A DNA stretch of 64,000 bases from Clostridium sp. (GCA_015058405.1 SVCL01000191.1:19424-83423); one strand, 5' to 3'. Counted from the first letter of the stretch, positions 7,660-54,100 are shown. The notes: generated by a model from the letters alone, not told the origin. Translations and numbers: made by a program.

Positions 7660-7663
7660 GTTT

Positions 7664-9702: not shown

Positions 9703-9713
9703 GGTATAACTTT

Positions 9714-10331: not shown

Positions 10332-10352
10332 AATTATATCTCCTTAAGTATT

Positions 10353-30739: not shown

Positions 30740-32173
30740 ATGAGTAAAGATAAAAAAGATATTAAAAGTATATATGGACTTTCTCCTATGCAAACTGTAA
30801 TGCTATTTAATTCAATAAAAAGCGCAAACAATGACGATGATCCTTATTTCAGACAATATTTAATTGATATACAAGGTGAAGTATGCGTTGAAAATTTAAA
30901 AAAGAGTATGCAGTTAATTATTGAAAGATATGATATTTTACGAACAGCTTTTGTTTATGAAAAAGTTAAACAACCAGTACAAGTAGTTTTTAATAGTAGA
31001 GAAATATCTATAGGATACGAAGATTTATCTAATTTAGATGAAGAGAAGCAAAAAGATGCTATAGATAAAATGATGAAAGAAGATAAGAAGATTAAATTTA
31101 ACTTATCAAAAGATGTTCTAAACAGAATGAAATTAATTAAGTTATCAGATAAGAAATATAAACTTTTATGGAGTAATCATCATATTTTAATGGACGGTTG
31201 GTGTGGAAGTATAATTCTTAATGAATTTTGTGATATTTATGAATCGCTTCAAGAAAATAAGAGAGTAAATTTACCAGCTGTAAATCAATATAGTGAATAC
31301 ATAAATTGGTTAAAGAAATATAATAAAAATGAAGCTTTAATGTATTGGAAAAAGTATTTAGCTGGATATAAAAATAAAACTAGTATACCGACTAATAAAA
31401 CTAATAAAATATATGAATACAATGAATTAGTATTGAAGCTAAATAAAGAAACTACCAGTAGATTGAAAAAATTTGCATTAGATAATCAAGTTACTTTATC
31501 AATAGTAGTAGATATTTTATGGGGATTACTTTTACAGGCTTACAATGAAACAAATGATTCAATGTTTGGAATGGTTGTATCAGGAAGAATGGCTCCTGTT
31601 GATGGAATTGAAAAAATGGTAGGTCTATTTATAAATACTATTCCAATGAGAATTAAGATATCAAATAGTACAAGTTTTTCAGATTTAAAAAATCAAGTAC
31701 AACAAGCAGTTATATATGGAGAAAAATATAGTAGTGTTTTATTAACTGAAATGTTGTCAGCAGCTAGCATAAATAATGATATGTTAGATCATATGGCTGT
31801 ATTTGAAAACTATCCAAGTGATGGTATTATAAAGAATAAATATTTTAGCTGCAAATTCATGAATTCAGCAGAAAAGACAAATTATGATTTTAATGTTTTA
31901 TTTTATCCAGGGGACGAAATAGAAGCTAGATTTACTTATAATAAAAATATGTATAGTGAAGAAATTATTAAAGTAATAATTAGTCATTTAGAAAAGTTAT
32001 CTAATAGTATTATTAAAGATGCAGATAAAACTTTATTAGATGAAAAGTTGAAAAAAGAATTGTTATTTGAATTAAGAGAAAAGCTAATAGATATAGAATG
32101 TGCTGATATTCTTAATGAAAAATTAAGCTTTTCTGAAGTTATTCCACAAGATGAAGGAAGCTTTACATTTTAA
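30740..32173 (+). CDS. Stand-alone condensation domain (DCL-type)
   Basis: IYGLSPMQ, RYDILRTAF, HHILMDGWC, VGLFINTIP; no A or PCP domain; ends QDEGSFTF. Confidence 0.92.
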   Translation: MSKDKKDIKSIYGLSPMQTVMLFNSIKSANNDDDPYFRQYLIDIQGEVCVENLKKSMQLIIERYDILRTAFVYEKVKQPVQVVFNSREISIGYEDLSNLDEEKQKDAIDKMMKEDKKIKFNLSKDVLNRMKLIKLSDKKYKLLWSNHHILMDGWCGSIILNEFCDIYESLQENKRVNLPAVNQYSEYINWLKKYNKNEALMYWKKYLAGYKNKTSIPTNKTNKIYEYNELVLKLNKETTSRLKKFALDNQVTLSIVVDILWGLLLQAYNETNDSMFGMVVSGRMAPVDGIEKMVGLFINTIPMRIKISNSTSFSDLKNQVQQAVIYGEKYSSVLLTEMLSAASINNDMLDHMAVFENYPSDGIIKNKYFSCKFMNSAEKTNYDFNVLFYPGDEIEARFTYNKNMYSEEIIKVIISHLEKLSNSIIKDADKTLLDEKLKKELLFELREKLIDIECADILNEKLSFSEVIPQDEGSFTF

Positions 32174-32187
32174 AATATTATAGTAGG

Positions 32188-32228
32188 AAAATTCTCTTTT
32201 ATAACTAGGTTATAAAAGAGAATTTTTT
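32188..32228 (+). terminator. Intrinsic terminator inside the NRPS operon
   Basis: 18-bp perfect stem AAAATTCTCTTTTATAAC / GTTATAAAAGAGAATTTT, loop TAG, T run at 32223-32228, between co-directional NRPS genes. Confidence 0.7.
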
Positions 32229-32278
32229 CGTGCTAAAAAATATATATTATTTTACATTAAAATGAAGGGAGAAATTTT

Positions 32279-35200
32279 ATGTTTAATGATTCTAAAGAAA
32301 CAGATTTAGAAAAGTTAAAAAGGCAACGTTCATATTGGATGAATAAATTATCAGATTATCTTTGTGAAAATAAGTTTCCATATAATAATGTAATTAACGG
32401 AGATAAAGAATATATTATTGAGAAATATACAGTAGATAATGAAATGTTATTAAGTTTAAAGAATATATCTGGTAACTCTAAAAGAAGATTATATGTTTTA
32501 TTAGTATCTTGTATGTGTATATTACTTTATAAAAATACTAAGAAAAATAAAATGGTAATAGGTTCGCCTATCTTAAAGCAAAAAGAGAAAAAAGAATATA
32601 TAAACACATTAATTCCTATAGTGGCAGATTTAAATGATGATATATCCTTTAAAGAATTAGTACTATCAATAAATGAGACAATGCTTGAAGCTTACGATAA
32701 TCAAGATTATCCAATGAAAAATATAATAGAAAATTTAAAGAGGGATAGTAAAAAGGATGATTTAGAATTATTCTCTATAAATACTAGAGAACATAGTATT
32801 CATGAAAATTGTTATGATGAAGAATTGAAAAGAGAATTAAATTTACAATTTTCAATAAATGATAAGAATATAGAGATTAATGTAGAATATAATTCTTCTT
32901 ATTACGTAAAAGACTATATTGATACTTTGATTAATCAATATAAAAATATAATTAAAGTAGCTTGTAATAATCCTAAAGTGATGCTTAAAGATATATCTTT
33001 AATATCATTAGAGGAAGTAGATTTAATATTAAATAAATTTAATAATACTAAAACTAATTACCCTAGCGGAAAGAGCGTTAAAGATATTTTTGAAGAAACA
33101 GCAAGAGAAAATAAAGATAAGATAGCTGTTGTATCAGGAGACAGAAGTTTAACTTATGGAGAATTAGATGAAAAATCTAATCAAATAGCTCATTCCTTAA
33201 TTGGCCAAGGAATTGAAAATAATGATGTTGTAGCTATATTATGCGATAAAAGTATAGATACAATAGTAGGAATATTAGGAATAGTAAAAGTGGGTGCAGC
33301 TTATTTACCAATTGATACAAGCTATCCTAAAAGCAGAGTAGATTATATGGTATCTGATAGTAAAGCAAAAGTATTACTATTGCGACAAGATTCTATTGAT
33401 AATAAGGTTGTTAAGGATTTACCTTTAAATAGAATTGTTATAGATAGTAAAGAGGTTCTATTAGAAGATAAGGAAGCGGTTAATAGAGTAGTATCAGCGC
33501 AAGATTTAATATATATTATATATACCTCAGGAAGTACTGGAAAACCTAAAGGTGTATGTGTTATGAATAAAAATGTAGTTAGATTAGTTAAGAATACTAA
33601 TTATGTAGAATTCAAAAAGGAAGATAGAATATTACAAACAGGTTCTATAGCATTTGATGCATCAACTTTTGAGGTATGGGGATCATTATTAAATGGTTCA
33701 GCTTTATATGTAGAAAGCAAAGATATAATACTAGATAGTAATGTAATTAAAGATTATATTAATAAAAATAATATTTCAGTTATGTGGTTGACTTCTCCAT
33801 TATTTAATCAATTATGTGAAGATAAAGTTGAGATTTTTTCTAACTTAAGATATTTGATAGTAGGAGGAGATGTAGTATCTCCGAAGTATGTAAATAAGGT
33901 AAGAAAAATTAATGATAGTATTGTAATAGCTAATGGATACGGACCAACAGAAAATACAACTTTCTCTACTGTTTATTTAATAGATAAAGATGTAGATGAA
34001 GAAAAAACAATACCAATAGGAAAACCAATATCAAATTCAACTGCCTATGTATTAGATAAAAATCAAAATTTAGTACCAATAGGTACAATAGGTGAATTAT
34101 ATGTTGGTGGTGAAGGTGTAGCAAAAGGGTATTTAAATAGAGAAGATTTAACAAAAGAAAAGTTTATAGAAAATCCTTTTAATAAATCAGAAAGATTGTA
34201 TAGAACAGGGGATAAAGTAAGGCTGCTAAAAGACGGAAATATAGAGTTTTTAGGTAGAATAGATTATCAAGTAAAAATAAGAGGATTTAGAATAGAGTTA
34301 CAGGAAGTAGAAAGAAGAATATTAGAACATGAAAATGTTAAAGAAGTTGTAGTATTAGATAAGTTAGATAAGCATGGAAGTAAATGTTTAGCAGCTTATA
34401 TAGTGGGAGAAAATGAAATAAAAGCATCAGAAATTAGGGCGTATTTAATAGAAAGATTACCTGATTATATGATACCTTCTGAATTCTATATTATTGAAAA
34501 GATGCCATTAAATCAAAATGGAAAAGTTGATAGAAAAGAATTACTTCTATTAGAAGCTAAGGAAGATAGTAGCGAAGAGTGTTGTAAAGGTAGAAATGAA
34601 ATAGAAAATTTATTAATTGATATATGGGAAAGTGTTTTAGTAAGGAAAGGAATTGGAATATATAATGATTTCTTTACTTTAGGTGGAGATTCTATAAAGA
34701 TAATTCAAGTTCTTTCTCAATTAAGAAAATATAACTATAAATTAAATGTACAAGATTTCTTTAATTATCCAACAATTTCAGAATTAGCTCTTCATATTAA
34801 AACTATTGATGAAGAAATAGATCAAAAGTTAGTTGTAGGAAAAACTAATTTAACACCTATTCAAGAGTGGTTTTTTAATGAAAGTAATAACGAAATAAAT
34901 CACTTTAATCATTCTGTAATGATTTTCAAAGAAGATGGATTTGATTTAAAAGTATTAAAGAAAACATGTCATAAGTTAATTGAACATCATGATGCATTAA
35001 GAATGACTTATAAATTTGAAAATGATAAGATTACTGGATTTGTTAATGATCTAAATGAAAATAGCTTAAAATTTAAAGTTATAGATTTAAGAAATAGCGA
35101 TTATTATGAAGATATAATAGAGCAAGAAACAATGAAAGAGCAAAAATCAGTAGATATAAGAAAGGAATCACTTACTAGATTTGTTTTATTCAAAACACCA

Positions 35201-37669
35201 ATAGGTGATAAATTATTAATAATAGTACATCATTTGGTGATAGATGGTGTTTCATGGAGAATATTGTTAAGAGACTTAGAATTAGGATATTCTCAAGGAA
35301 TAAAGGATGAAGAAATTACATTTGATAAAAAGACTATTTCTTATAAAAAGTGGTCAGAAATATTAGAAGATTATTCTACAGGTGAAAAGTTAAGAAGAGA
35401 AAAATTATATTGGAATAAGATAGTTCAAAAAGACATTAAGAAACTTCCTAAATTAGTAGATGCTAAGTCAGATAATATTAAAGATGGACAGACTATTACT
35501 GTTGAATTAGATAAAGCTGCAACAGTAGATTTGTTAGAAAAGACTAGTAAAGCTTTCAACACAGAAATTAATGATATATTATTATCAGCATTACAAATAA
35601 GCTTGTATAAGTGGATAGGCAATGGAGAAATAGCTATAAATCTTGAAGGACATGGTAGAGAGGCAATAGTAGAAAACGTTGAATTGAGTAATACTATAGG
35701 ATGGTTTACTTCCTTATATCCAGTAATATTAGATTTAAAACAAAATGATAATGTTGGATATATGATAAAGAATTTGAAAGAAAGATTAAGAAAGATACCT
35801 AATAAAGGAGTAGGTTATGGAATATTAAAATATATAACTGCTCAAAAGGAAGAATCTATTGTTAATCTTAATTTTAAACCAGAGATAAGCTTTAACTATA
35901 TGGGACAATTTGATATGAACTTAAATAGTGATATTTTTAAGATCGATGAGTTCTTATTAAAATCTTCAGTTAGTGAAGAAGTAAGAAGAAACTTTGCTAT
36001 AGATATAGTTGGAATAATGATAAATGAAAATATAGTTTTTAGATTTAATTATAATAAAGAAGAGTTTGATAAAGAAACAATAACTTCCTTTGCTAATAAT
36101 TATATTGAAGCATTAAAAGAAATAATAGACTTCTGTAAATCTGTAAAAGAGACAGAATATACTCCTTCAGATTTTGGCGATAATACTTTAACAATAGATG
36201 AATTGAATATCATAAAAGATAAATGCGGAAAAAATATAAAGAAAATTTATCAGCTAACACCTTTGCAAGAAGGTATGGTTTATCATTCATTAGTAGGGGA
36301 TGAATCAGGAAATTATGTAGTTCAATCTGTCATGGATTTTAAAGGAATATTAGATGAAAATTTATTTATAAAGGCTTTTGATTTAGTACTTAATAAATAT
36401 GAAATTTTCAGAAGTAGAATTTTCTATAAAAATATAGATAAGATAAGACAAGTTATTTTGAAAAAGTCAGAAATAGAATATGTATATGAAGACATATCAA
36501 ACTTTGATTTAGATACTAGAAAAGAAAAGTTTGATAATTTCATAGAAGAGGATAGACAAAGAGGATTTGACTTAGAGCAAGATAGTTTAATGAGAATAGC
36601 TATATTTAGAGATAAGACAGATATGTACAAGGTAGTTTGGAGTTTCCATCATGTTATTTTAGATGGATGGTGTTTAGGAATTGTATTAAATGATATCTTT
36701 ACTTTCTATAGAGAATTAAAACTTAATAGAAACGTGGAAAGTAAAGAAAGTGTAGAATTTGGTGAATATATAAAATGGCTAGCTGAAAAAGATAAGGAAG
36801 AAGCTAGAACTTATTGGAGAGAGTATTTAAAAGATATAAAAGATATCGTGGGATTCTCTAAATTAAAAGAAGATAATCCTAATAAACCTAAGTCAAAGAA
36901 TACTAATTTATTTAAAATTAATGAAGAATTATTAGAAAAACTTAATAAAAAGGCTTCAGAAAATAAGGTGACATTAAGTAATATAATTCAATCTATATGG
37001 GGAATTTTATTAAGTAAATATTGTAATAGTTCAGATATTGTATTTGGTTCTGTAATATCAGGTAGATCAGGTGACTTTGAAGGAATTGAAAATATGGTTG
37101 GTTTATTTATAAATACTATACCAATAAGAGTTAATTTAAATAATGAAACTAATTTCAAAGATATAGTTACAAAGATGCAAAAAGATCAAGTACAAAATGA
37201 GAAGTTTAGTTATTATCCTCTTATTAAGATACAAAGAGATAATAATATAGAAACTGATTTAATTGACACTATTATAGCTTTTGAAAATTATCCTTTAAGT
37301 ATAGATAAGATAAATGAAGAGCTAAGTCAAACTGATTTAGAGATAGATAAGGCATATTCTATAGAGCAAACAAATTATGATTTTGAAATTGTAATTATAC
37401 CAGGAAAAGAATTAGAGGTTAGTTTTGTATACAATTCAAATGCATATAGTGAAGAATTTGTAAATAGAGTTTCTTCAGATATGCAAAAGATAATAGAAAT
37501 AGTAAGCGAAGATTTTTCAATAAATATAAGCGAAATTAATTTACTAGGAAATAGTGAAAAGGAAAAATTAATAAAGCAATATAGAGAAGAAGTTTCCTTA
37601 AATAATATCAATTATACAGGAAATGAAGAAGCAGCTTTAAGTGAAGATGATATAGATTTTGATTTTTAA
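32279..37669 (+). CDS. NRPS 2: half-C - A(Val) - PCP - E - C(DCL)
   Basis: N-terminal ~250 aa resemble the C-terminal lobe of a C domain with no HHxxxDG. A code DAFWIGGTFK (Val). PCP GGDSI; E HHLVIDGVSW; C HHVILDGWC; ends EDDIDFDF. Confidence 0.92.
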   Translation: MFNDSKETDLEKLKRQRSYWMNKLSDYLCENKFPYNNVINGDKEYIIEKYTVDNEMLLSLKNISGNSKRRLYVLLVSCMCILLYKNTKKNKMVIGSPILKQKEKKEYINTLIPIVADLNDDISFKELVLSINETMLEAYDNQDYPMKNIIENLKRDSKKDDLELFSINTREHSIHENCYDEELKRELNLQFSINDKNIEINVEYNSSYYVKDYIDTLINQYKNIIKVACNNPKVMLKDISLISLEEVDLILNKFNNTKTNYPSGKSVKDIFEETARENKDKIAVVSGDRSLTYGELDEKSNQIAHSLIGQGIENNDVVAILCDKSIDTIVGILGIVKVGAAYLPIDTSYPKSRVDYMVSDSKAKVLLLRQDSIDNKVVKDLPLNRIVIDSKEVLLEDKEAVNRVVSAQDLIYIIYTSGSTGKPKGVCVMNKNVVRLVKNTNYVEFKKEDRILQTGSIAFDASTFEVWGSLLNGSALYVESKDIILDSNVIKDYINKNNISVMWLTSPLFNQLCEDKVEIFSNLRYLIVGGDVVSPKYVNKVRKINDSIVIANGYGPTENTTFSTVYLIDKDVDEEKTIPIGKPISNSTAYVLDKNQNLVPIGTIGELYVGGEGVAKGYLNREDLTKEKFIENPFNKSERLYRTGDKVRLLKDGNIEFLGRIDYQVKIRGFRIELQEVERRILEHENVKEVVVLDKLDKHGSKCLAAYIVGENEIKASEIRAYLIERLPDYMIPSEFYIIEKMPLNQNGKVDRKELLLLEAKEDSSEECCKGRNEIENLLIDIWESVLVRKGIGIYNDFFTLGGDSIKIIQVLSQLRKYNYKLNVQDFFNYPTISELALHIKTIDEEIDQKLVVGKTNLTPIQEWFFNESNNEINHFNHSVMIFKEDGFDLKVLKKTCHKLIEHHDALRMTYKFENDKITGFVNDLNENSLKFKVIDLRNSDYYEDIIEQETMKEQKSVDIRKESLTRFVLFKTPIGDKLLIIVHHLVIDGVSWRILLRDLELGYSQGIKDEEITFDKKTISYKKWSEILEDYSTGEKLRREKLYWNKIVQKDIKKLPKLVDAKSDNIKDGQTITVELDKAATVDLLEKTSKAFNTEINDILLSALQISLYKWIGNGEIAINLEGHGREAIVENVELSNTIGWFTSLYPVILDLKQNDNVGYMIKNLKERLRKIPNKGVGYGILKYITAQKEESIVNLNFKPEISFNYMGQFDMNLNSDIFKIDEFLLKSSVSEEVRRNFAIDIVGIMINENIVFRFNYNKEEFDKETITSFANNYIEALKEIIDFCKSVKETEYTPSDFGDNTLTIDELNIIKDKCGKNIKKIYQLTPLQEGMVYHSLVGDESGNYVVQSVMDFKGILDENLFIKAFDLVLNKYEIFRSRIFYKNIDKIRQVILKKSEIEYVYEDISNFDLDTRKEKFDNFIEEDRQRGFDLEQDSLMRIAIFRDKTDMYKVVWSFHHVILDGWCLGIVLNDIFTFYRELKLNRNVESKESVEFGEYIKWLAEKDKEEARTYWREYLKDIKDIVGFSKLKEDNPNKPKSKNTNLFKINEELLEKLNKKASENKVTLSNIIQSIWGILLSKYCNSSDIVFGSVISGRSGDFEGIENMVGLFINTIPIRVNLNNETNFKDIVTKMQKDQVQNEKFSYYPLIKIQRDNNIETDLIDTIIAFENYPLSIDKINEELSQTDLEIDKAYSIEQTNYDFEIVIIPGKELEVSFVYNSNAYSEEFVNRVSSDMQKIIEIVSEDFSINISEINLLGNSEKEKLIKQYREEVSLNNINYTGNEEAALSEDDIDFDF

Positions 37670-37685
37670 TAAGGAGTAGATAGAA

Positions 37686-40600
37686 TTGGATAGTAAGGTA
37701 ATTGAAAATATATTATTATCGGATAAAACTTATGCAATACAAAAAGAGTATTGGCAAGAAAAGCTTAATGAATGTAAGAAAACTACATTATTAAATAAAA
37801 GAGTTGAATCTGTGAAAGATTTAAATGTAGTAGAAAATTGTTTTGAAATACAGAATGAAATATTTCAAGGGTTAAAGAAAATATCAAAAGGAAAAGACTT
37901 AACTTTATATATTATTTTGCTTTCTATATTAAAAGCGATTTTATATAGATACACTGAAAAAGATGATATTGCAGTTTGGTCTCCTGTATATATGCAAAAG
38001 TGTACAGAAAAAACAATTAATGATTTTATAGTTATTAGAGATTCTGTAGATGGTAAGAACACATTAAAAAATATAATAATGAACGTAAAAAAGAGCTGTA
38101 TTGAAGGATACAATAATCAAGATTTTCCTTTAAGAAAATTTGTGGAAGAAGAAATAGAAGCAGAAATTGTATGTTCATTAAATACTATACATGATTCTAA
38201 CATTAAAGAATATCCAAAAGAAAGTGTAGTTCTTGCATTTGAAAGATATGAAGATAAGTTAGATCTTAAAGTAAAGTTTAATTCTAATAAATATACAACC
38301 TTAGAAATTGAAAGGTTTGTTAAGAACTATGAAGAAATGGCTAAAAACTTTACTAAGGACATTAATTTAGAATTAAGTAATACAGATTGTGTTGCTAATG
38401 AAGAAATAGACATAATAGAAAATAAGTTAAACAACACACAAGTAGAGCATTGTGATGATAAGTTATTAAATGAAATTTTTGAAAACAAAGTACTAGAATC
38501 TCCAGATAAAATAGCAGTTGTGTTTGGTGATAATAAGTTAACATATGATGAATTAAATAAGAAAGCCAATAAATTAGCGAGACAATTAAATAAATTAGGA
38601 ATAAAGGCAAAAGACATAGTTGGAATTATGATGGATAAGTCAGAAGAAACTATAATTGCTATGTTAGCTATTTTAAAGGCAGGGGCAGCTTATTTACCTT
38701 TAGGTATAGATTATCCAATAGAAAGAGTATTGGATATTAAGGAAAGTTCTAATCTTGAGTTTATAATAAGGGAAAACTTAAGGATAAATAGAATTGAAGG
38801 TGATAAATATGTTGAAGTTGATGCAATTGAAGAGATTAATAATTGTGAAAATCTAGAAAAGAATATATCACCTAACGATTTAGCTTATGTTATATATACA
38901 TCTGGTTCAACTGGAAAGCCAAAAGGGGTTATGGTTGAACATAGAAATGTAGTTAATGTATTAGAATGGTTTAATAGTTTAATGGATGCGGAAGTAGATT
39001 GTAATGTTTTACAACTTACCAACATCACTTTTGATGTTTCTGTAGAAGAGATATTTGGAGCTATTTTATTTGGTAGAACATTATTTATTCCAGATAAAGA
39101 AACTAGACTAAGTTATGAAAAGTTAAGAAGTTATATTGAGGAAAATAATATTAATATAGCTCAATTTGTACCAGTAACATTAAGAGAATTCTTAGTAGAA
39201 GGTAAAAAAATAGAATGTTTAAATAAAGTAGTTTGTGGTGGAGATAAATTAGATGATGATTTAAAGAATAAAATAGTATCTAAAGGATATAATTTATACA
39301 ATAATTATGGACCTACAGAAACTACAGTAGATGCTATATCTTTAAAATGTTCTAATGAAAAAGTTACTTTAGGAAAACCTATTGATAATACAAATGTATA
39401 TATTGTTAATGAGTTAAATAAACTTCAACCTATAGGTGCAATTGGTGAAATATGTATTGCAGGAAAAGGCGTAACAAGAGGATATATGAATAATGAAAAA
39501 CTTACAGCAGAGAAGTTTATAATAAATCCTTTTGGAACTGGAAAGCTATATAAGACAGGAGATCTTGGAAGATGGTTGGAAGATGGTACTGTTGAGTTCT
39601 GGGGAAGAGTAGATAATCAAGTTAAAATAAGAGGATTCAGAATAGAAATAGGAGAAATCGAAAACTTACTAAAATCATATAGCGAAATTAAAGAAGCAGT
39701 AGTTGTTGTAGAGCAAGATAAGTTTAATAATAAGAGTTTATGTGCATATTTTGAAGCAGCAAAAATTTTAAATGTTGAAGAAATTAAAAAATATCTGTTA
39801 TCTAAATTACCAAGTTATATGGTTCCAACATATTTAGTTCAAATAGATAAGATGCCATTAAAATCTAATGGTAAAATTGATACTAAACAGCTTAGTAGAA
39901 AAAAAGAAAATATAAATAGTTCATCAAATATTGAATTACCTAGAAATTATATAGAAGAACAATTAGTAGAGGTATGGAAGAATATACTTGGAAGTGAAGA
40001 GATAAGTATATCTAGTGACTTTTTTGAACTTGGAGGAGATTCTATAAAAGCTTTACAAATAGTATCTTCTTCTGCAAGAAAAGGATTAAAGTTAGAAGTT
40101 AAAGATATATTTGAAAAGAGAACAATTAAAGAATTAAGTCCTGATATTACTTTTAAGAGTAAATCTAATAATCAAGAAAGTGTTGAAGGTCCTGTTAAAT
40201 TATCTCCAATTCAAAAGTGGTTCTTTGAACAAAACTTCACAAATAGTAATCATTGGAATAATTCAATGATGATATTTAGCAAAGATGGATTTAAATTAGA
40301 CTTAGTTAAGAAGGTAGTAAATAAAATAGTAGAACATCATGATGCATTAAGAATGGTATATGACATTAAAGGTGAAAGTGTACTACAAACTAATTTGGCA
40401 TATAAAGAAAATATGATTGATGTAGAGGCTATAAATTTAAGAGATTTATTAAATTATAAGGCAGAAATAGAAAAAGAATGTGATAAGATCCAAAGTAATA
40501 TAGATTTAAATAATGGGCCATTAATAAATGTTAAGTTATTTAATACTATTGATGGAGATTATATAGTATTTGTAATACATCATCTTGTTATAGACGGAAT

Positions 40601-41585: not shown

Positions 41586-41611
41586 AACATAAGTAATTTG
41601 GGGGAGTTATT

Positions 41612-44600: not shown

Positions 44601-45325
44601 TACTTAAAATGTTTTCTCTTATAAATAATATCTATAAAGATAAGATTAAAATTACAGATATTTTTGCTAATCCAACAATAAAAGAATTAGCAAAATTAAT
44701 TGGTTATAATCCAGAAGATGAAGAAAATTATGAAATAGAAGGATTAAAGCTAAGTGATGAATATTTCTTGAATAATGAAAGAAATACTGAAAATTCAATG
44801 TTTGAGTATACAATTGATGAAGATATGTATAGTGAATTACTAAGAATTTCAGATAATTTAGCTATTAATATAGAAACAATATTAATAGCTACAAATATTT
44901 ATATTAATAATAAAATAAGTGATATCAGTGAACAAGTTATATATACAATTCTTGATAAAGAAGATAAGGTTAAAAAGAGCATTATTGATTTAAAATCAAT
45001 AAGTAATTTTACAGATTTGTTTATGTTAGTTAAAGAAGGTATCTTTGACAATGAGGAAAATGTGTACGATATTGCTAAATTTAATAGAGTAATTAAAAAC
45101 AATAAAGAAGTAAATATAATTTATCCTTTAATATATAATAATGAACTTGATGTTAGTGATTATAATTTAGAAGAAATATTTAATTTATCACTAAGTGTTG
45201 AAAAATTTGAAGATTATTTAAAACTTAAGTTTAACTATAATACTGATATTATTAAGACTAATAAAGTTGAAGAAATGTTTGGTTTATATATTAATTTATT
45301 AGAAATGATAATTAAAAACTATTAA
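41612..45325 (+). CDS. NRPS 4: C(DCL) - A(Leu) - PCP - half-C
   Basis: HHIIMDGWC; A code DAWFLGNVVK (Leu); PCP GGNS; C-terminal ~190 aa resemble a degenerate C-lobe. Confidence 0.92.
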   Translation: MGNKVKIEKIYNLTSMKEGMILYDELNKENDAYIEQSMFIIKGCLNVNTLEETFNKLIERYEAFRSVFISKGINEPVQVVVQDAKLVIHYEDLTNYTGSKEEYIKKFEEEDRRKGFDLTKAPLTRVSVLKLDEEVFQVVWSFHHIIMDGWCMGILIDEMFKIYDSINENYTLDLPKVHSYSKYMDWLKLQDEDEAEEYWKEYMSEYEECACIINSKTSASSSKYDVCDLYFKVNKEKTGILKEISNKYGVTLSTIIQSIWGIMLQRYNSTKDVIFGAVVSGRPAEVENVSSIVGLFINTIPVRVKTEEKMQFNELLLDMQNKALQSDKYQYYSLAKNQSNSLVKENLINNIVAFENYPESDEINNSNSLMKSNLLISDLRAYEQTSYDFNFIVLPGEELTIRFNYNGAKYDTGTIERIKDHFINIVNNVVENDSIIIDDIDIIGDEEKEKILNHFNNTNKEYENKKNVIELFEEQVEINPENIAIVDGEEEVTYKELDKKSNLLASKLLENERLGSESIISIMMDRSINMIVSMLAVLKVGAAYLPIDPEYPSNRIEYILQNSKSDMLITQKKYSKDLDFEGSILNIEEVNFADELKVERINNSKYDDLAYIIYTSGTTGNPKGVMIEHRNLINLCKWHVDRFGITEKDNSAQYASMGFDACVWEIWPYIISGSTIYIVPNELKIDILSLNNFYNKNNITVSFLPTPICQSFIEIGENSSLRYLLTGGDKLVNYKKQNYKLVNNYGPTENTVVTTSFEVDAEYSNIPIGKPIYNTKVYILDKNDKLAPIGVSGEICISGSGISRGYLNNEKLTKEKFIDNPYNKEEKMYRTGDLGKWTNDGNIEFQGRSDYQVKIRGFRIELGEIESNLLKIEGVTEATVLDIGEGDNKHLCAYITTGKELSISYLKEVLKENLPKYMVPTYFIILDRMPLTPNGKVDKRALLKVEINNEESENIEVQQETNDIEKNLLGVWEKILGVKGIKLEENFFDIGGNSLLVLKMFSLINNIYKDKIKITDIFANPTIKELAKLIGYNPEDEENYEIEGLKLSDEYFLNNERNTENSMFEYTIDEDMYSELLRISDNLAINIETILIATNIYINNKISDISEQVIYTILDKEDKVKKSIIDLKSISNFTDLFMLVKEGIFDNEENVYDIAKFNRVIKNNKEVNIIYPLIYNNELDVSDYNLEEIFNLSLSVEKFEDYLKLKFNYNTDIIKTNKVEEMFGLYINLLEMIIKNY

Positions 45326-45344
45326 ATATTATTGGAGGGGTTGT

Positions 45345-46595
45345 ATGAAAGATGTAGTGTTGTTGTTTTCAGGACAAGGTTCTCAATATGTTGGAATGGG
45401 AAAAAACATATATGATAAATACTCAATTGTTAAAGATATATTCGAGGAAGCAAGTGATACCTTAAATATAGATATGAAGAAGTTATGCTTTGAGGGGGAT
45501 TTGGAAAAGTTATCATTAACTAGTAATACACAAACTGCTATATTAACAGTTAGTTATGCTATGTTTAAAGTGCTAACAAATGAGTATGGAATAAATCCTG
45601 TATATATGGCCGGACACAGTTTAGGTGAAATAAGTGCTATTACCTGCGCTAATGCTATCAATTTTAAAGATGGACTTAAGATAGTAAAAAGAAGAGGAGA
45701 ATTAATGCAAAGAGCTAGCGCTGAAAAAAGCAGTATGGCAGCTATTATTGGTGTTGAGTCAAAAGAGGTTGAAAATGTAATTGATGAAATAAAGAATAAA
45801 GGGCGAATAATCAATATTGCTTGTTATAATTCTACGCTGCAAAATGTTATTTCAGGAGAAGATGAAGCTGTAAGAGAAGCTATTAATAAGTTAGAAACTA
45901 TAGCTAAAAAAGTATCTCATTTAAAAGTAAGTGGAGCTTTTCATACACAATTAATGGCTCCTGTAGCTGATGAATTTGAAGAAGAGTTAAATAAGTATAA
46001 ATATAATGAATTTAGTATTCCTGTAATTAGTAATGTAAATGCTAAAGAATATGAAAGTTCATTAGAAATTGTAAGTAACTTAAAAAATCAGTTAACAAAT
46101 CCAGTATTATGGACTGATATAATGAAAGCTATAATAAATAAAGATAGTGATTATATTATAGAATTAGGGCCTAAAAATACATTAAGTAAGTTATTTAAGA
46201 GATATTCTAATATGAGTAATATATATGCTTTTGATAACAAAGCTGATCTAAATAAAATAGATAGAAATATAGGTTTAAAAAAAGATATTGATTTTAATCT
46301 GGTAAAATCAATATTAGTTGCAGCATCATGTACTGAGAATAATAATTTTCAAAATGAAAAATACAGTGAAAATGTAATTCTTCCAATAAAGAAGATAAAA
46401 AATATATATATTGCATTAAAAGAAACAAAAAGAGAGGTTACTGTTGAAGACTTAGATAAAGCAGTAGAGGCTCTTTTTTTAGTGCTTGAAAATAAGAGTG
46501 TAGGTAATTTTGAAAAGAAAGAAATATTAAGCGAATTATTAAAACAAACAAGATATGAAGAGATTAAAAGAAAAATCGCAAGTAATATCATATAG
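45345..46595 (+). CDS. Stand-alone malonyl-CoA:ACP transacylase (trans-AT), ItuD/FenF-like with C-terminal extension
   Basis: FSGQGSQYVGMG, catalytic GHSLGE, VSGAFH, ELGP; ~110 aa extension beyond the FabD core. Confidence 0.9.
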   Translation: MKDVVLLFSGQGSQYVGMGKNIYDKYSIVKDIFEEASDTLNIDMKKLCFEGDLEKLSLTSNTQTAILTVSYAMFKVLTNEYGINPVYMAGHSLGEISAITCANAINFKDGLKIVKRRGELMQRASAEKSSMAAIIGVESKEVENVIDEIKNKGRIINIACYNSTLQNVISGEDEAVREAINKLETIAKKVSHLKVSGAFHTQLMAPVADEFEEELNKYKYNEFSIPVISNVNAKEYESSLEIVSNLKNQLTNPVLWTDIMKAIINKDSDYIIELGPKNTLSKLFKRYSNMSNIYAFDNKADLNKIDRNIGLKKDIDFNLVKSILVAASCTENNNFQNEKYSENVILPIKKIKNIYIALKETKREVTVEDLDKAVEALFLVLENKSVGNFEKKEILSELLKQTRYEEIKRKIASNII

Positions 46596-46613
46596 ATTTT
46601 AAAAGGAGGAAGT

Positions 46614-49600
46614 ATGCTAAGTTTTGACGATATTGATTTGAATATAAAGAAAGAAAAAGTTGAAGTTAAGAAAATTCGTTCAAAAGACATAGCTGTTATC
46701 GGTATAAGTTTAAGATTACCTAAGGCTAACAATTTGGAAGAATTTTGGTGCAACCTTACTAATGGAATAGATTGCATTGACCATGTACCAACTTCTAGGC
46801 AAAAAGATATAACAAAGTATTTAAAATACACTAATATGGATAAAGAATTTGAAGTTGGAGAAATGGGCTATATAGATGATATAGATAAATTTGATTATAA
46901 GTTTTTTGGCTTATCTCCAAATGAAGCTAAATTAATGGATCCAAATCAAAGAGTATTTTTACAAACTGCATGGAATGCTTTAGAGGATTCTGGATATGGC
47001 GGTAAAAAGTTTTATGGTAGTAGAACAGGTGTGTATATAGGTTATGGAGATACGCCTGATTATTCTTATAGTAGATTAATTGACGAGGTTGAACCAAAAA
47101 GTAAAATAGTTAGTTTTACAGGAAATTTATCAGCGATGATTGCAAGTAGAATAAGTTATATTCTTAACTTAAGAGGACCAAGTGTAACTATAGACACAAC
47201 ATGTTCTTCATCTTTAGTAGCATTACATATGGCATGTCAAGGAATACGAAATGGCGATTGTGATGCAGCAATAGTAGGAGGGGTAAAAATAAGTGTTTTA
47301 CCTCTTAAATCAAAAGAAAAGTTAGGTATAGAATCTTCTAATGATAGAACTATGGCTTTTGATGATAATTCTGATGGAGCAAGTAGTGGAGAAGGTGTGG
47401 TAGCCTTAATTATAAAACCATTAGACAAGGCTATCAAAGATAATGATTCTATATATTCTGTTATAAAAGGAAGTTCAATAAATCAAGATGGAAGATCTAT
47501 TGGAATTACAGCTCCTAATCCAGAGGCACAGGAAGATGTTCTAATTAGAGCTTGGAAGGAAGCAGAAGTGAATCCAGAAGATATATCATATGTAGAAGCT
47601 CATGGAACAGGAACAAATTTAGGAGATCCAATAGAAATTGATGGATTAACTAGAGCTTTTTCTAAATTTACAGATAGAAAACAATTTTGTGCTGTAAGTG
47701 CTCTTAAATCTAATATTGGACATTTAGATAGTTGTTCAGGTTTAGCTGGAGTTGTAAAAGCTATCCTATGTCTTAAACATAAAACTTTAGTTCCAGTGGT
47801 TAATTTTACAGTTCCAAATTGTAAAATTGATTTTGAAGAGTCGCCAGTATATATAGTTAACAAAACTAAGAAATGGAATAGTAGATGTGACTTAAGAAAA
47901 TGTGGAGTAAGCTCTTTTGGATTAAGTGGATGTAATTGTCACGTTGTATTAGAAGAGTGGCAAGAAGATAAATCAGCTAGTTTAAGTAGAATTAATGAAT
48001 TTGATATGTTATCTGTTACAGCAAAATCACAAGAAGCATTAGAAAATTTAATAAAGAAATATATAACTTTTATTGAGAATATTGATGAAAGTGACTTAAT
48101 GAATTTTGTTTATACAGCTAATACAGGAAGAGGAGAATATGAAGAAAGAGTATTATTCATATTCTCAAACAAGGAAGAGTTATTAAATAATATGAAGTCT
48201 TTTAGTAGAAAGAACTTTAATAGTGAAAAAATATTTATTACTAATAGAGAACATTATAATGATATAAACTTCCAAAAAACTGTACAAGATGAAATTGATA
48301 GCTTACAGAAAAATTGTCAATACGATTTAGAAACACTTATTAAAATTGCAGGATTATATGTTAATGGTGGAAGTATTGACTGGAATAAGTTTTATAAAAA
48401 AGAAAAGAGAAAGAAGATTCATATACCAGGATATGAGTTTGAGAAAATTAGGGTATGGCTTAATATTCCAGATGAGAGAAAAGTTAAGTGTTTAAATTCA
48501 GTGGAAAAGGAAGAAGAGAAGAAAGTTAAGCCTACAAGTATTGAAGAAATAAGCAAAGTAATTGCAGATACTTGGAGTGAGTATTTAGGAATAACTTCAA
48601 TTGGGCTAGAAGATAATTATTATTCATTAGGGGGAGATTCTCTTATTGGTATCCAAATTGTAAATAGATTAAAAAATATTTTAGATGTGGATATAAAATT
48701 AAAGGATTTATCTGAAGGTTTAACAATAAAAAAATTGTCTAGCATAATAATGGAAAAGTCTAAGTTAGACAATAGTTCTGCTAAAAATGATATGACTATC
48801 AAAAAGGCAGAAAAGAGAGAGTATTATCCATTATCTTCAGCTCAAAAGAGAATGTATGTAAGTCAAGTATTAGAAGATGAAAAAGAGAATAAAACTTATA
48901 ATATTTTTGGTGCATTAGATATTGAGGGTAAGTTAGATATAGATAAACTTAAACATGCATTAAATCAAGTTACTGAAAGACATGAAATTTTAAGAACATC
49001 TTTTAAATTAGTTGATGGAAAACCTGTCCAAATAGTAAATGAAGATATAAAAATAGAATTAGAAACTATGGAGATAGATGAAAACAACATAGATAAACAA
49101 ATTGATTTATTAATTAATTCTTTTGATCTAAGTGCTGCACCATTAACTAAATATTATTTATTACATGTAGCAAATGATAAATATATATTTGTATATAATA
49201 TGAACCATATAATTTCAGATGGTGTTTCAGTAGGAATATTTATGGATGAAGTATCTCAAATATATAATGGAAATACTTTAGAACCATTGAAATTACAATA
49301 TAAGGACTATGCAGTATGGCAAAATAAGATCATAGGTAGTGAAATAATTGAAAGTCAGAGACAATATTGGATTAACAAATTTAGTGGTGACTTGCCTACA
49401 TTAGATTTATTGCCTGATTATTCTAATAGTTTGGATAATGTATATGAAGGAAGTTATGTTAGAGTTATTGCAGACTTAGACATAAAAAGAAGTTTAAATG
49501 AAATTGCTAATAAGAGAAGTACAACATTATTTAATGTATTACTAGCTGCATATTATGTACTTTTAATGAAGTATAGTAAGCAAGAAGATATAATCATAGG

Positions 49601-50153
49601 ATCACCATTTTCAGGAAGACAAAATTCGGAAATTGAAAATCTAATGGGAATGTTTGTTAATACTATTGCTTTAAGAAGTTGTCCAAACAATAGCAAGAAA
49701 TTTAATGACTTCTTAGAGGAAGTAAAAACTTGTACTATGGAAGCAATTGAAAATCAAGATTATCAATTTGATATGCTTGTAGAAGAACTAAATTTAAATA
49801 GACAAGAAGGTAAGCTATTTGATACTTTCTTTGCATTACAAAATATGAAGTTAGACCCAATTAAGATTAATGATGTGAAAGTAGATTTCAGAGAATGTAA
49901 TATTCATGTATCTCCATATAAAGTATCATTAATTTCTATGGAAAATAGTGAAGGTATAAATTTAATATTTGAATATCAAAAAAATGTATTTAAAAGAGAA
50001 ACTGTTGAAGGTTTTGCAGAAAGCTATATTAGTATTTTAGAACAAATTACAGAAGATGATACTTTAATGATAGAAGATATTAAGATATGTAATGAGTACG
50101 ATAAAGCAGAATGCGATATTTTAGAAAATGAAGATTTAGATTTTAATTTTTAA
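46614..50153 (+). CDS. AT-less PKS/NRPS hybrid: KS - ACP - C(LCL), no KR, DH or ER
   Basis: KS triad DTTCSSSL, EAHGTGT, KSNIGH; AT-docking remnant PGYEFEK; ACP LGGDSL; C domain YPLSSAQKRMY and NHIISDGVS; ends ENEDLDFNF. Confidence 0.92.
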   Translation: MLSFDDIDLNIKKEKVEVKKIRSKDIAVIGISLRLPKANNLEEFWCNLTNGIDCIDHVPTSRQKDITKYLKYTNMDKEFEVGEMGYIDDIDKFDYKFFGLSPNEAKLMDPNQRVFLQTAWNALEDSGYGGKKFYGSRTGVYIGYGDTPDYSYSRLIDEVEPKSKIVSFTGNLSAMIASRISYILNLRGPSVTIDTTCSSSLVALHMACQGIRNGDCDAAIVGGVKISVLPLKSKEKLGIESSNDRTMAFDDNSDGASSGEGVVALIIKPLDKAIKDNDSIYSVIKGSSINQDGRSIGITAPNPEAQEDVLIRAWKEAEVNPEDISYVEAHGTGTNLGDPIEIDGLTRAFSKFTDRKQFCAVSALKSNIGHLDSCSGLAGVVKAILCLKHKTLVPVVNFTVPNCKIDFEESPVYIVNKTKKWNSRCDLRKCGVSSFGLSGCNCHVVLEEWQEDKSASLSRINEFDMLSVTAKSQEALENLIKKYITFIENIDESDLMNFVYTANTGRGEYEERVLFIFSNKEELLNNMKSFSRKNFNSEKIFITNREHYNDINFQKTVQDEIDSLQKNCQYDLETLIKIAGLYVNGGSIDWNKFYKKEKRKKIHIPGYEFEKIRVWLNIPDERKVKCLNSVEKEEEKKVKPTSIEEISKVIADTWSEYLGITSIGLEDNYYSLGGDSLIGIQIVNRLKNILDVDIKLKDLSEGLTIKKLSSIIMEKSKLDNSSAKNDMTIKKAEKREYYPLSSAQKRMYVSQVLEDEKENKTYNIFGALDIEGKLDIDKLKHALNQVTERHEILRTSFKLVDGKPVQIVNEDIKIELETMEIDENNIDKQIDLLINSFDLSAAPLTKYYLLHVANDKYIFVYNMNHIISDGVSVGIFMDEVSQIYNGNTLEPLKLQYKDYAVWQNKIIGSEIIESQRQYWINKFSGDLPTLDLLPDYSNSLDNVYEGSYVRVIADLDIKRSLNEIANKRSTTLFNVLLAAYYVLLMKYSKQEDIIIGSPFSGRQNSEIENLMGMFVNTIALRSCPNNSKKFNDFLEEVKTCTMEAIENQDYQFDMLVEELNLNRQEGKLFDTFFALQNMKLDPIKINDVKVDFRECNIHVSPYKVSLISMENSEGINLIFEYQKNVFKRETVEGFAESYISILEQITEDDTLMIEDIKICNEYDKAECDILENEDLDFNF

Positions 50154-50181
50154 ATAAATATTTTTTTAGGGGGAATTTAAA

Positions 50182-51105
50182 ATGGAAAATAGTAAAAAAA
50201 ATAGTATTATGGTAGTGGTTTTAACATTTATAATGTCTTTTGTTGTTTATCTTGCAGCTACATTAGTTGTTAGAGGAACATTTATTTCTATTCAAAATTT
50301 AGGTGATTTACCTATGGAAGAAGCAAATATGATTTTAGGTAAAAATCCAGTGTATTTAGGAGTAAATTCAATTGTAGATATTTTAGTAATTGTATGTTTA
50401 ATGTTTATTGTAAAGAAGAAAAATGAAAAAGTATTTGAATATGATGATGTTGTTAAGTTTAGAAAAAGAAGTTTTAATCTATATTCTTTAGGAATACTTT
50501 TAGCAACAATAAATATGGTTGTATTTACTTTATTTGCAGTTTGTTCAGGTTTATTTTCTTATGGTTCAGAAACTGTGTCTGATTTTTCTACTAGTGTAGT
50601 AGTTGAGTTTGTTATTTGTGGATTAGTTTATTCGTTTATTACTGGATATTGTGAAGAATTACTTCATAGAGGAATTATATATAAGCAATTAAATAAAGCT
50701 TGTCCTAAGTATTCTTTATATATATGTTCATTTTTATTTATGATGACAGAATTATCAGGAAGTCAATTTAAATTAATAGATTATGTTGGTGTATTTTTAG
50801 CTGGTGTATTTTTCTGTTATTTATATGATGTAAGTTCTTCAATGTTTTTATCAGCTGGATTCCATTCAGGAGTACACTTCCTTTTATTAATGGTAACTAA
50901 ATTCCAAGGTGTTGATATATATCAAGGACCAATGTTTATGATTTTTAATCCAAGTAATGATTTTGTTGTTGGAGGTATAAGCTTAGGATCTCCATATGGT
51001 ATTGTTACTGCAGTTATTAATATGCTAGGAATAGTTATATTAACTATTTATAAAAAGAAAAAGAATATAAAAAGTGAAGCAGAATTAAATATGAAAGCTG
51101 CTTAA
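50182..51105 (+). CDS. CPBP/Abi (type II CAAX protease-like) membrane protein with divergent motifs
   Basis: Multiple TM helices; EELLHRG (EExxxR). Expected FxxxH reads FMMTE; expected HxxxN reads HSGVH. Confidence 0.75.
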   Translation: MENSKKNSIMVVVLTFIMSFVVYLAATLVVRGTFISIQNLGDLPMEEANMILGKNPVYLGVNSIVDILVIVCLMFIVKKKNEKVFEYDDVVKFRKRSFNLYSLGILLATINMVVFTLFAVCSGLFSYGSETVSDFSTSVVVEFVICGLVYSFITGYCEELLHRGIIYKQLNKACPKYSLYICSFLFMMTELSGSQFKLIDYVGVFLAGVFFCYLYDVSSSMFLSAGFHSGVHFLLLMVTKFQGVDIYQGPMFMIFNPSNDFVVGGISLGSPYGIVTAVINMLGIVILTIYKKKKNIKSEAELNMKAA

Positions 51106-51147
51106 TTTCATCTAGAGAGCTAAAGTAAAGAGGCGGAGGATATAAAA

Positions 51148-54100
51148 ATGAGTGATATAAATAAACTTAATACTCAAGATACAGACAAGTTATTTTGGAA
51201 TAAACAGTTAAGTGCTAATTTAAGTGATAATCATTTTCCTTATGATTACAATTATGAGGGGAATAATGAAGAAAAAATATATGAATGGTGTGAGCTTAAT
51301 TTATCAGATGAAGCAAATAATGTTATAAAAAAAGTCGCAGGAAGTTCTGATGTAAAGTTACATATTTTATTTATATCAGCATTAAGTATTTTAATAAGTA
51401 GGTATTCTGAAAATAACGATATTATAATATCATCTCCAATTTATAAGCAAAATATAGAAGGAAATTTTGAAAACAAAGTATTAGTTTTTAGAAATGAAAT
51501 TGATTTAGAAGGAAGTTTTAAAAACTTCCTTCTTAAGGTTAAGGACAATTTGGTTGAAGCAACTAAACATCAAAATTTTCCTATATCAAAGTTTATTAAT
51601 ACAATAGAGTTTGAAAATTTTGAAAATGGAAATGATATATTTCAAGTAATGCTTGCTATTGATGCTATTCATGATATTAATTATGTTGATTGTATAAATA
51701 GTAACTTATATTTTTTAGTTGTAAATGATGAAAAAAATATAAAAATAAAAGTTAAATTCAATTCTAATTTATATAAGAAAGAAAGTATTAAGTTAATATT
51801 ATATTCTTTAGAAGAGTTAATAACTGAATTAATTAGTAAAAATAGTATTGAGAATTTTAATATTCTTTCTAATTATGAGAAAACAAAAATATTAAATGAA
51901 TTTAATAAGAAAACAGTTTGTGATGAAGAATATTTACTTCATGAATTATTTGAAAAGCAAGTTGAAAAAAATCCAGATGAAATAGCTTTGATAGATGGAA
52001 GTAGAAGTATAACTTATAAAGAATTAAATGATAAAGCAAATTCATTGGCTGGATTTATAAATGAAAAAGGAATGGGGAAAAATACAATTATAGGAGTTAT
52101 GCTTGATAATTCCATAGAACTTATAATTTCATTATTAGGAATATTAAAAGCAGGTGCGGCTTATTTACCAATAGATTCAGGTTATCCAGAAGATAGAATA
52201 AGTTTTATGATTGAGGATAGTAAGTTAAATTGTATTATAACAGAAAATAAATATGAGAACTTATTAAAAGATAGAAAAATAAATATTATTGATATTAATA
52301 ATGAAGAAATATATTTATATAAGGATAGAGTAATTAATATTGAAAAGAATCCAAGTACTTTAGCATATATAATATATACTTCTGGTACAACAGGAAAACC
52401 AAAAGGGGTAATGATTGAACATAAAGCAGTTACTAAATCTATATTATGGCGTAGCAATGAATATAAGTTAAGTGTTGAAGATGCAGTATTGCAGTTATTT
52501 TCATATTCATTCGATGGATTTGTAACAAGCTTTTTTACTCCAATAGTATCTGGTTCTAAGGTAGTTTTATTAAAAGGAAATGAAGTTAAAAATCCTTATA
52601 AAATTAATGAAGCTATAAAAAAATATAATGTGACTCATTTTATAGCTGTTCCACCATTATTTAAAGCTATATTAGATAATGCAAAATATGATGATCTTTT
52701 GTCATTAAAAATTGTAACTTTGGCTGGTGATAATATAACTAATGATGTAATAAAGAAAGCTAAACAATTAAATGAAAATTTAGAAATTGTAAATGAATAT
52801 GGTCCTACAGAAAATAGTGTAGTCACAACTATATACAGAGATTTAAAAGTTAATGAGCCAATAAAAATAGGTAAACCTATAAGTAATACTCAAGTATATA
52901 TAATTAAAAATGATAAATTATGTAATGTGGGTATTAGTGGTGAGTTATGTATATCAGGAGAAAGATTAGCTAGAGGATATTTAAATAGAGAAGATTTGAC
53001 TTCTGAGAGATTTGTTCAAAATCCTTTTGATAAAGATTTAATTATGTACAAGACCGGAGATATAGGTAAGTGGGATATTGATGGAAATATAAGATTATTA
53101 GGAAGAAAAGATAATCAAGTTAAAATAAGAGGATTCAGAATAGAGCTTGGGGAAGTAGAAAATAGAATACTAGAATATAAAGGCATAGAAAGTGTAGTAG
53201 TTACAGCTAAATATGATCATCATAATAATAAATCTTTATGTGCATATTTTGTTTCTAAGGATAAAGTATCTACCTTAGATTTAAGACAATATCTTAATAA
53301 GGTATGTCCTTTATATATGGTGCCAGCTTATTTTATGCAAATAGATAGTATACCTATAACTGTTAATGGAAAGGTTGATAGAAAAAACTTACCGGATATA
53401 GAGTTTAAAAGAGATATAAATTCTAAGTTTGTTGAGCCTAGAAATGAAAACGAGAAGATTATTGCAAATGAATGGAGAAAAGTTTTAGAAATAGACCAAA
53501 TAGGTATATATGATAACTTCTTTAATTTAGGAGGAGATTCTCTTAAAGCTATTCAAGTTGCAAGTTTATTATCTGATAAGTTTGAAATCGAAATCAATGA
53601 TATTTATAAAAATCAAACTATAGCAGAACTAGCTGAAAAAATAAAATATTCTAATACATCTGTAAAGGATAGAATTAAACAAATAATAAATTCGGATTAT
53701 ACATTTAATGATGATAAAAATTTAAGTGAACAAGAATATATAAATGATGAATATAATAATAAATTGAATTTATGCAAAGAAGAAAGTTATACAGTGAAAA
53801 GTTATACTAACATAATGCTAACAGGTGTTACAGGATATGTAGGAGCATATTTAAGTAAGGAAATTTTAGAAACTTTAAATTCAAATATATATGTTTTAGT
53901 AAGAGGAGAAGATTTAAATATAGCTACTAAAAGATATATTGATAAGTTAACTTTCTATTTTGGTGAAGATTTTTATAATAAGTACAAAGATAGAATAAGT
54001 GTTATAAATGGAGATATAACAGAAGAATTTTTAGGTATAGAGAAATGTCATTATGATGAATTAGCAAATACAATAGATTGTGTTATTAACTCAGCTGCAT

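Follow-up and report, generated by a model that had tools for sequence, protein, structure and literature searches.

In a 64,000-nucleotide stretch of DNA from Clostridium sp. (GCA_015058405.1 SVCL01000191.1:19424-83423; hereafter the window), the + strand encodes a hybrid nonribosomal peptide synthetase (NRPS) and trans-acyltransferase (trans-AT) polyketide synthase (PKS) cluster of low GC content (about 26%). Three breaks between its proteins fall between a condensation (C) and an adenylation (A) domain. At each of these C|A breaks, the upstream protein ends in a short acidic tail of the form F-x-F and the downstream protein begins with only the C-terminal lobe (C-lobe) of a C domain, here called a half-C. 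The conserved co-occurrence of the two elements suggests that the split modules are probably joined by docking of the tail onto the half-C, either alone or with the A core. More tentatively, and short of an even chance in our judgment, the pair may define a widespread class of NRPS docking, in which a C-terminal [DE]-F-x-F is bound by a C*/ADA-like C-lobe, rejoining C|A splits and recruiting tailoring enzymes in trans.

The first-pass annotation of the window had placed an acidic F-x-F tail on all three proteins whose last domain is a true C domain and a C-lobe-only domain at the start of each downstream partner (32279, 37686, and 51148), and both observations hold. Direct translation gives ..DEGSFTF, ..DDIDFDF, and ..EDLDFNF as the C-termini of the standalone C protein, NRPS2, and the protein with ketosynthase (KS), carrier protein (T), and C domains, the last reading ..ENEDLDFNF up to its stop codon (table 1). 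The downstream domains are ~260 amino acids (aa) long, match only positions ~188-455 of the Pfam Condensation model, and have neither an N-lobe nor an HHxxxD motif. Both elements are present at three of three C|A breaks in the window.

The window half-Cs share 26-29% mutual identity (E 1e-19 to 1e-23) and are closer to one another than to any full C domain in the cluster. In NRPS2, NRPS3, and NRPS5, the half-C sits at the protein start, directly N-terminal to the A domain, and the same halfC-A order opens 29 of 29 related open reading frames (ORFs). Half-C proteins begin at most ~20 residues before the C-lobe, and in the window there is no room for a hidden N-lobe: the DNA before each half-C is taken up by neighboring genes or by stop codons in frame, and a good ribosome-binding site precedes every start. 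Comparison of 72 half-Cs with 150 C-lobes of C domains in cis delineates a subfamily. The C5 Arg, found in 100% of cis C-lobes, is replaced by Q in half-Cs, which are also missing a six-residue segment after C5, the ~30-residue latch, and the KFD motif; they keep C6 as NQ[ND]YP and have gained YWxxKLS, TFK[ED]LL, ENIH, and FxFxR, all absent from cis C-lobes. The window half-Cs also match the first ~220 positions of TIGR03443 (NCBIfam, Lys2-type alpha-aminoadipate reductase), at scores below the whole-protein cut-off, as expected. Because this is the ADA region of the Lys2 model, the half-C is, as judged by sequence, of a described domain kind, the C*/ADA of ACV synthetase and Lys2-type reductases. 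Sources on this kind of domain are Iacovelli et al. 2021 and, reportedly, the earlier work of Kalb et al. 2015 that they cite.

Matches of half-Cs to structures in the PDB all fall within the C-lobes of full C domains, and among solved PDB chains none begins with such a C-lobe-only domain. An AlphaFold2 (AF2) model of aa 1-665 of NRPS3, only moderate in quality (pLDDT 71), aligned over ~700 columns to solved C-A didomains (TMq ~0.55); it is compatible with, and not decisive for, a retained C-lobe:A platform. A protein homologue search with the three window half-Cs and the C-terminal tail region of NRPS4 returned no matches, and a 22-sequence profile returned only 20 short fragments.

The pairing recurs across genomes. 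A scan with an alignment of half-Cs, using one genome per species, found 60 loci, and look-ups of encoding contigs and a scan of metagenomes with the window alignment added more. The resulting set has 29 half-C-starting ORFs from unrelated genomes and metagenomes, 27 of them with a readable upstream ORF. The co-occurrence of tails with downstream truncated C domains, which the first-pass annotation had proposed to survey, is enriched: in 24 of the 27 evaluable cases an F-x-[FLIY] tail occurs ≤2.3 kb upstream. Counted by ORF, F-x-[FLIY]-COOH ends 27 of 38 ORFs located ≤2.3 kb upstream of a half-C versus 14 of 343 others (odds ratio 58, Fisher p = 1.6e-22). Since loci were found via half-C similarity and several clusters among them are related, this p-value overstates independence and bounds the strength of the evidence only from above; that tail and half-C are associated is not in doubt. 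One of the three evaluable exceptions, L025, is without the subfamily signature and resembles a broken ordinary C domain.

Twelve of the 14 tailed ORFs in the comparison group also carry docking tails: one is a cognate tail located further upstream, three are copies of McyE, and eight are at carrier-protein|C junctions, where the TubC-type domain of the partner was confirmed by Pfam in three cases and inferred from an N-terminal extension of ~65 aa in the rest. The McyE copies are a C-ending Microcystis protein of 3487 aa (L030 and L033, 326-10789; L084, 3-5789) that ends in ..FTEDFNF; its length and the gene order suggest that it is McyE. The C|A splits of microcystin (McyE/McyA) and iturin-family (MycA/MycB, ItuA/ItuB, BamA/BamB) synthetases have the same break position, and their downstream proteins may belong with the half-Cs.

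Pairs of tail and half-C were found in Halanaerobiales, Omnitrophota, Aminicenantes, Bacteroidales, Alkaliphilus, Wukongibacter, Chitinophaga, and metagenomes. Genome-wide, the strongest matches of the window half-Cs are all N-terminal half-Cs from distant phyla, and their upstream neighbors end in ..DESDFAF, ..DDDEFIL, ..EEGEFSF, ..SDSNFSF, ..SDDFNFS, and ..EDISFNF. A HMMER pass covered 1.84 billion representatives, and of its 150 best proteins at least 54 start with a half-C. In the same pass, an aromatic-x-hydrophobic C-terminus was found on 51 of 98 C-type endings versus 0 of 12 endings of the epimerization (E) type. Other arrangements also occur. A different kind of C|A break occurs in L018 (9068-17263 / 17274) and P0149, where the upstream protein ends at the linker (..EEQQLLMEFN) and the next protein opens directly with an A domain, with neither half-C nor F-x-F. 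In L062, a C-A-T-E protein with a COM-like tail (4485-8981) is followed by a type II thioesterase (9025-9756) and a half-C NRPS (10001-11472) at the end of the contig; a standalone C protein like that of the window may lie beyond the contig edge.

Across the 27 cognate tails, which come from many phyla, the profile is [DE][DE]-x-[DE]-F-[DENS]-F-COOH, located ~10-35 residues beyond the C-lobe, with an invariant Phe at position -3 and F, L, or Y at -1. The tail has the features of a short linear motif (SLiM) for docking, being a short acidic C-terminal motif with terminal hydrophobic residues. At carrier-protein|C junctions in the same loci, proteins end in IETFEF, ENFEL, or NQFVL and their partners carry a ~65-residue N-terminal Pfam TubC_N domain; C-terminal motifs of the F-x-F type are known ligands of such TubC-type domains. 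The pairing of tails such as IETFEF and ENFEL with TubC_N supports reading the F-x-F tail as a docking motif as well. The case for a specificity "code" in these pairs is weak, since the conserved core, [DE][DE]x[DE]-F-x-F, is generic and three near-identical tails serve three junctions of one assembly line; at ~30, the pairs are also too few to reveal covariation of tail and half-C. Identity of the tail with the FNxT linker motif was considered and ruled out: L011 has both ..ELFNDS and ..DDFNFS, and downstream proteins retain their own FNxT.

The same tail is found on enzymes unrelated to C domains. B12-binding radical SAM (rSAM) enzymes of two subfamilies with ~25% mutual identity carry an F-x-F/L tail and are encoded directly upstream of half-C NRPS genes (table 1). 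In L006, a tail-less rSAM paralogue (6440-8047) is beside the tailed one. A PP-loop ATPase-like enzyme of L067 (4858-5964) ends in ..DFDIDFNF right before a half-C NRPS, and its homologue in L006 (12051-13094) ends in ..GVDLEI, a variant of the form L-x-I. Occurrence of one tail on unrelated enzymes upstream of half-C genes argues for a portable docking motif, or recruitment signal, aimed at the halfC-A unit, rather than a linker remnant.

Docking could operate as follows. The upstream subunit would present a flexible extension of 10-35 residues after its catalytic C domain, with the terminal [DE][DE]-x-[DE]-F-x-F-COOH acting as the docking motif, and the downstream subunit would offer a C-lobe that lacks both catalytic activity and latch and is fused to the A domain. 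Two jobs are proposed for this C-lobe. It may keep a C-lobe:A-core platform for adenylation, as shown in homologues elsewhere, and, to judge from co-occurrence, it may receive the tail, either by itself or jointly with the A core. Docking would then keep the catalytic C domain of the upstream subunit close enough to the downstream T domain for condensation in trans. Tails on B12-binding rSAM and PP-loop enzymes would likewise recruit these enzymes to the same module.

Several observations weigh against tail docking onto the half-C, in addition to the relatedness of loci and the modest quality of the half-C/A model. The half-C and A domain are always fused and co-occurrence therefore cannot tell which of them is the receptor. 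In loci such as L005, L006, L067, L068, L076, and L078, two tailed proteins, in several cases a megasynthase and an rSAM enzyme, precede a single half-C, which needs either two binding sites or alternation. No tailed neighbor is in the DNA at hand for the half-C proteins of L002, L062 (Bacillus wiedmannii), and L065. Finally, ACV synthetase and Lys2 have functional C*/ADA domains and no upstream partner (PMC7884236), so a partner-independent role could be the sole role of the half-C. In an alternative explanation, the half-C is purely a C*/ADA scaffold that activates the A domain, the tail docks elsewhere (the A core, the T domain, or another protein), and the two co-occur because both are needed where a module is cut between C and A. 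C*/ADA domains are needed for adenylation in enzymes without an upstream partner; deletion of the C* of ACV synthetase, an isolated C-lobe without the active-site motif, abolishes adenylation, although the exact role of C* has been called elusive (PMC7884236); in microcystin modules, a C domain in cis promotes adenylation (preprint, bioRxiv 10.1101/2023.11.13.566838). The match of half-Cs to the Lys2 ADA region and the half-C proteins without a tailed neighbor also fit a scaffold. We nevertheless regard this alternative as unlikely. The half-Cs of split junctions are a tight subfamily in which surface-type residues (Lys, His, and aromatic) absent from cis C-lobes are conserved, a gene starting with a half-C is present wherever rSAM and PP-loop enzymes carry the tail, and the only protein whose A domain comes first after a C|A break (L018) has an upstream partner that ends in ..LLMEFN, not F-x-F. 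The view in the first-pass annotation that half-Cs receive the tails and stand in for the C-A interface is thus upheld in part: the pair is conserved at C|A breaks and the interface idea fits the C*/ADA literature, whereas the receptor role is one that we infer.

Two other explanations were considered. If the tail were a functionless remnant of the C-A linker, its position would be explained, as in an uncut module this place would be taken by the linker and the first part of the A domain, and in L011 it comes right after the ..ELFNDS linker motif. A remnant, or a signal for stability or localization instead of docking, is very improbable, however, given an invariant Phe at -3 and F, L, or Y at -1 over phyla in the 27 cognate tails, the presence of the tail on unrelated enzyme families, and its absence from all 12 E-type endings; the downstream protein also retains a complete linker motif (..ILNKFNNT..), making the tail an extra element. 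That half-C starts are artefacts, either frameshifted or miscalled full C domains, fits two loci, L012 with a broken C domain and L025. As a general explanation it is effectively refuted by the sequences: the DNA upstream of each window half-C leaves no place for a missing lobe, the same architecture recurs in 29 loci and among the 150 top-scoring representatives, of which at least 54 have it, and deletions and signature residues are specific to the subfamily.

Docking of an F-x-F tail onto a half-C has likenesses to several known systems. C*/ADA domains (Iacovelli et al. 2021, PMC7884236) are likewise isolated C-lobes before an A domain, with no N-lobe, no HHxxxDG, and partly kept C6 and C7 motifs. 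Unlike the half-Cs, they occur in initiation modules or stand-alone reductases, have no upstream partner, and have no described docking ligand. Half-Cs of the window are at the start of elongation modules, with the catalytic C domain on another protein and a tailed partner strictly present. TubC-type SLiM/beta-hairpin pairs (Richter 2008, Hacker 2018, Kosol 2019, reviewed in PMC9113145; PMC13324335) also use a short, disordered, and acidic C-terminal motif with alternating hydrophobic residues, which is portable, found on tailoring enzymes too, and able to serve several partners; the final five residues extend the hairpin by one strand (PMC9113145). They differ in that the receptor domain is absent from half-C proteins, with no match to TubC_N (PF18563) in NRPS2, NRPS3, and NRPS5 even at E ≤ 10 while the T|C partners, as positive control, are recognized, and in that the break here is C|A inside a module and not carrier protein|C between modules. 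Engineered splits of the C-A linker (the XU concept and type S NRPSs with synthetic zippers; PMC11546977) similarly cut modules between C and A and rejoin them noncovalently. Their zippers are artificial, whereas the tail and half-C would be a natural solution for that cut.

Communication-mediating (COM) helices (Hahn and Stachelhaus; PMC9113145) are comparable in that a C-terminal element contacts the first domain of the next subunit, and they are used at the two E|C breaks of the cluster. As the first-pass annotation had noted, both junctions carry COM-like helices; translation gives ..SEDEFDDILDILNE and ..TPTDLGDANISIDDLDNIMNLLNQ, and the receiving C domains begin with MSKDKKDIKSIYGLSPMQ and MGNKVKIEKIYNLTSMKEGM. 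COM donors are amphipathic helices that follow an E domain and bind a helix-hand on a full C domain, and F-x-F occurs on none of 12 E-type endings. The features of a COM pair are found at the two E|C breaks and not at C|A breaks, where donors end in C-type domains and acceptors are without an N-lobe. A COM study of bacillomycin D deals with E-C junctions only (PMC9213223), and docking reviews and recent work (including PMC9113145) recognize COM, PAX, SLiM/beta-hairpin, and PKS classes. We found no C|A docking class and no prior account of the pairing between tail and half-C in open-access docking reviews and primary work through 2026, though an earlier report is possible.

The junction between NRPS4 and the KS protein is different. 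It had been described as a mirror image of the others, with a half-C at the end of NRPS4 and an acidic Phe peptide at the start of the KS protein, and only the first half of that description fares well. The C-terminal domain of NRPS4 (halfC') matches Pfam Condensation below threshold (E 0.0025) and over only ~50 residues of the profile (386-436), but has a full-length phmmer match to the C-terminus of P0140 (E 6e-13), and jackhmmer converges on C-lobes over the full length. In an AF2 model (pLDDT 66), Foldseek matches are only to C, heterocyclization (Cy), and E domains (TMq 0.5-0.59), a result that is partly circular because the input alignment held C-lobes. A divergent C-lobe after the final T domain recurs in at least six other NRPSs (including P0003, P0089, P0136, L036, and L040). 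However, a trans-AT gene separates NRPS4 from the KS protein, and the KS peptide motif is weak. The annotation had mentioned neither this gene nor the one for a CAAX/Rce1-like membrane protein that precedes NRPS5. KS proteins of three related clusters begin with MLSFDDIDL, MLDLDMLSWDRE, and ..KNISFEEV.., with only a loose LS[FW][DE] in common at differing positions and at a variable distance from the KS core.

Chances are about even that halfC' is not a receptor for the KS peptide and is instead a vestigial C domain at the hand-over from NRPS to PKS or a platform for the trans-AT. A gene for an AT follows the halfC'-ending NRPS in the window and in L067 (18583-19854), on two unrelated contigs, and the halfC' of NRPS4 is highly degenerate; in two Paenibacillus loci (L036 and L040), a CAAX-like gene and a KS-T-C protein come after halfC'. 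Conservation of halfC' in at least seven proteins speaks for a function, and all three KS partners open with a short acidic or aromatic peptide, both of which count for the receptor role.

Pfam scans and domain hidden Markov models derived from the window resolve the order of domains and genes. The cluster starts with a type II thioesterase, followed by a nitroreductase-like oxidase, NRPS1, the standalone C protein, NRPS2, NRPS3, NRPS4, the trans-AT, the KS-linker-T-C protein, the CAAX/Rce1-like membrane protein, and NRPS5, and ends with transporters, a NusG/LoaP-like protein, and a beta-lactamase-fold protein.

Table 1. Coordinates of proteins, half-Cs, tails, and COM-like regions; positions are in the window unless a locus is named.
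Feature	Position	Strand	Details
Nitroreductase-like oxidase	20198-21175		just before NRPS1
NRPS1	21188-30724	+	A-T-Cy-A-T-Cy-A-T-E
COM-like donor region, NRPS1 end	30653..30721	+	..SVDLLENDISEDEFDDILDILNE
Standalone C protein	30740..32173	+	477 aa; Pfam Condensation 3-446/456, E 1e-95; HHILMDG at aa 147
Standalone C protein tail	32147..32170	+	QDEGSFTF-COOH (..IPQDEGSFTF, stop), by translation
NRPS2	32279-37669	+	halfC-A-T-E-C
NRPS2 half-C	32279..33064	+	Pfam Condensation 189-453 only, E 2e-23; TIGR03443 33-220, E 1e-13
NRPS2 tail	37643..37666	+	EDDIDFDF-COOH (..SEDDIDFDF, stop), past the terminal full C domain, by translation
NRPS3	37686-41585	+	halfC-A-T-E
NRPS3 half-C	37686..38465	+	Pfam Condensation 188-451, E 6e-16; TIGR03443 E 3e-5
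COM-like donor helix, end of NRPS3 E domain	41511..41582	+	TPTDLGDANISIDDLDNIMNLLNQ; junction to NRPS4
NRPS4	41612-45325	+	C-A-T-halfC'
NRPS4 halfC'	44702..45322	+	divergent C-lobe-like domain, 207 aa, C-terminal, after T domain
Trans-AT	45345..46595	+	416 aa, between NRPS4 and KS protein; Pfam Acyl_transf_1, E 4e-32
KS-linker-T-C protein	46614..50153	+	N-terminal peptide MLSFDDIDL (46614-46640); tail NEDLDFNF (50127-50150)
CAAX/Rce1-like membrane protein	50182..51105	+	between KS protein and NRPS5; Pfam Rce1-like, E 9e-12
NRPS5	51148-54915	+	halfC-A-T-R; architecture of Lys2-type reductases
NRPS5 half-C	51148..51930	+	Pfam Condensation 191-455, E 3e-20; TIGR03443 2-219, E 2e-14
Tailed B12-binding rSAM enzymes	L004 2-544; L005 1-840 and 7924-9639; L006 4736-6421; L059 4919-6601		
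Tailed B12-binding rSAM enzymes, continued	L066 1-429; L068 3199-4902; L076 1969-3678; L078 2999-4708		

Some features of the product and of the assembly line can be predicted. The two Cy domains of NRPS1 have DLLVSDG and DLLIADG instead of HHxxxDG and, together with the upstream nitroreductase-like oxidase, suggest that the product probably has two thiazole or oxazole rings. The standalone C protein would receive the chain from NRPS1 via a COM-like contact, and the terminal reductase (R) of NRPS5 implies release as an aldehyde or alcohol. In the C domain of the KS-T-C protein, NHIISDG (48800-48830, aa ~860) replaces HHxxxDG. Homologues of the CAAX/Rce1-like protein are also embedded in the related Paenibacillus clusters L036 (13657-15315) and L040 (13576-15234), and the protein may have a role in self-protection or processing. 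An ORF of 547 aa after the ABC ATPase gene (57141-58784) has no Pfam match.

Inside the operon, in the gap from 32173 to 32279, a perfect hairpin of 19 bp precedes a U-run (32188-32235; dG -26.8 kcal/mol, z -5.6). The hairpin was missed by a simple terminator scan because its stem is AT rich. Together with the NusG/LoaP-like gene at the cluster end (58837-59334), this hairpin suggests processive antitermination in the operon.

If tails dock onto half-Cs, C*/ADA domains, whose function has been called elusive, would gain a second function as docking receptors, and there would be a possible explanation of how split modules assemble, for example in microcystin and iturin-type synthetases. Docking would also show how rSAM and other tailoring enzymes are aimed at one module. 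Engineers of NRPSs cut at the C-A linker and use synthetic zippers; a natural, compact, and portable pair for that same cut would, if confirmed, be directly usable.

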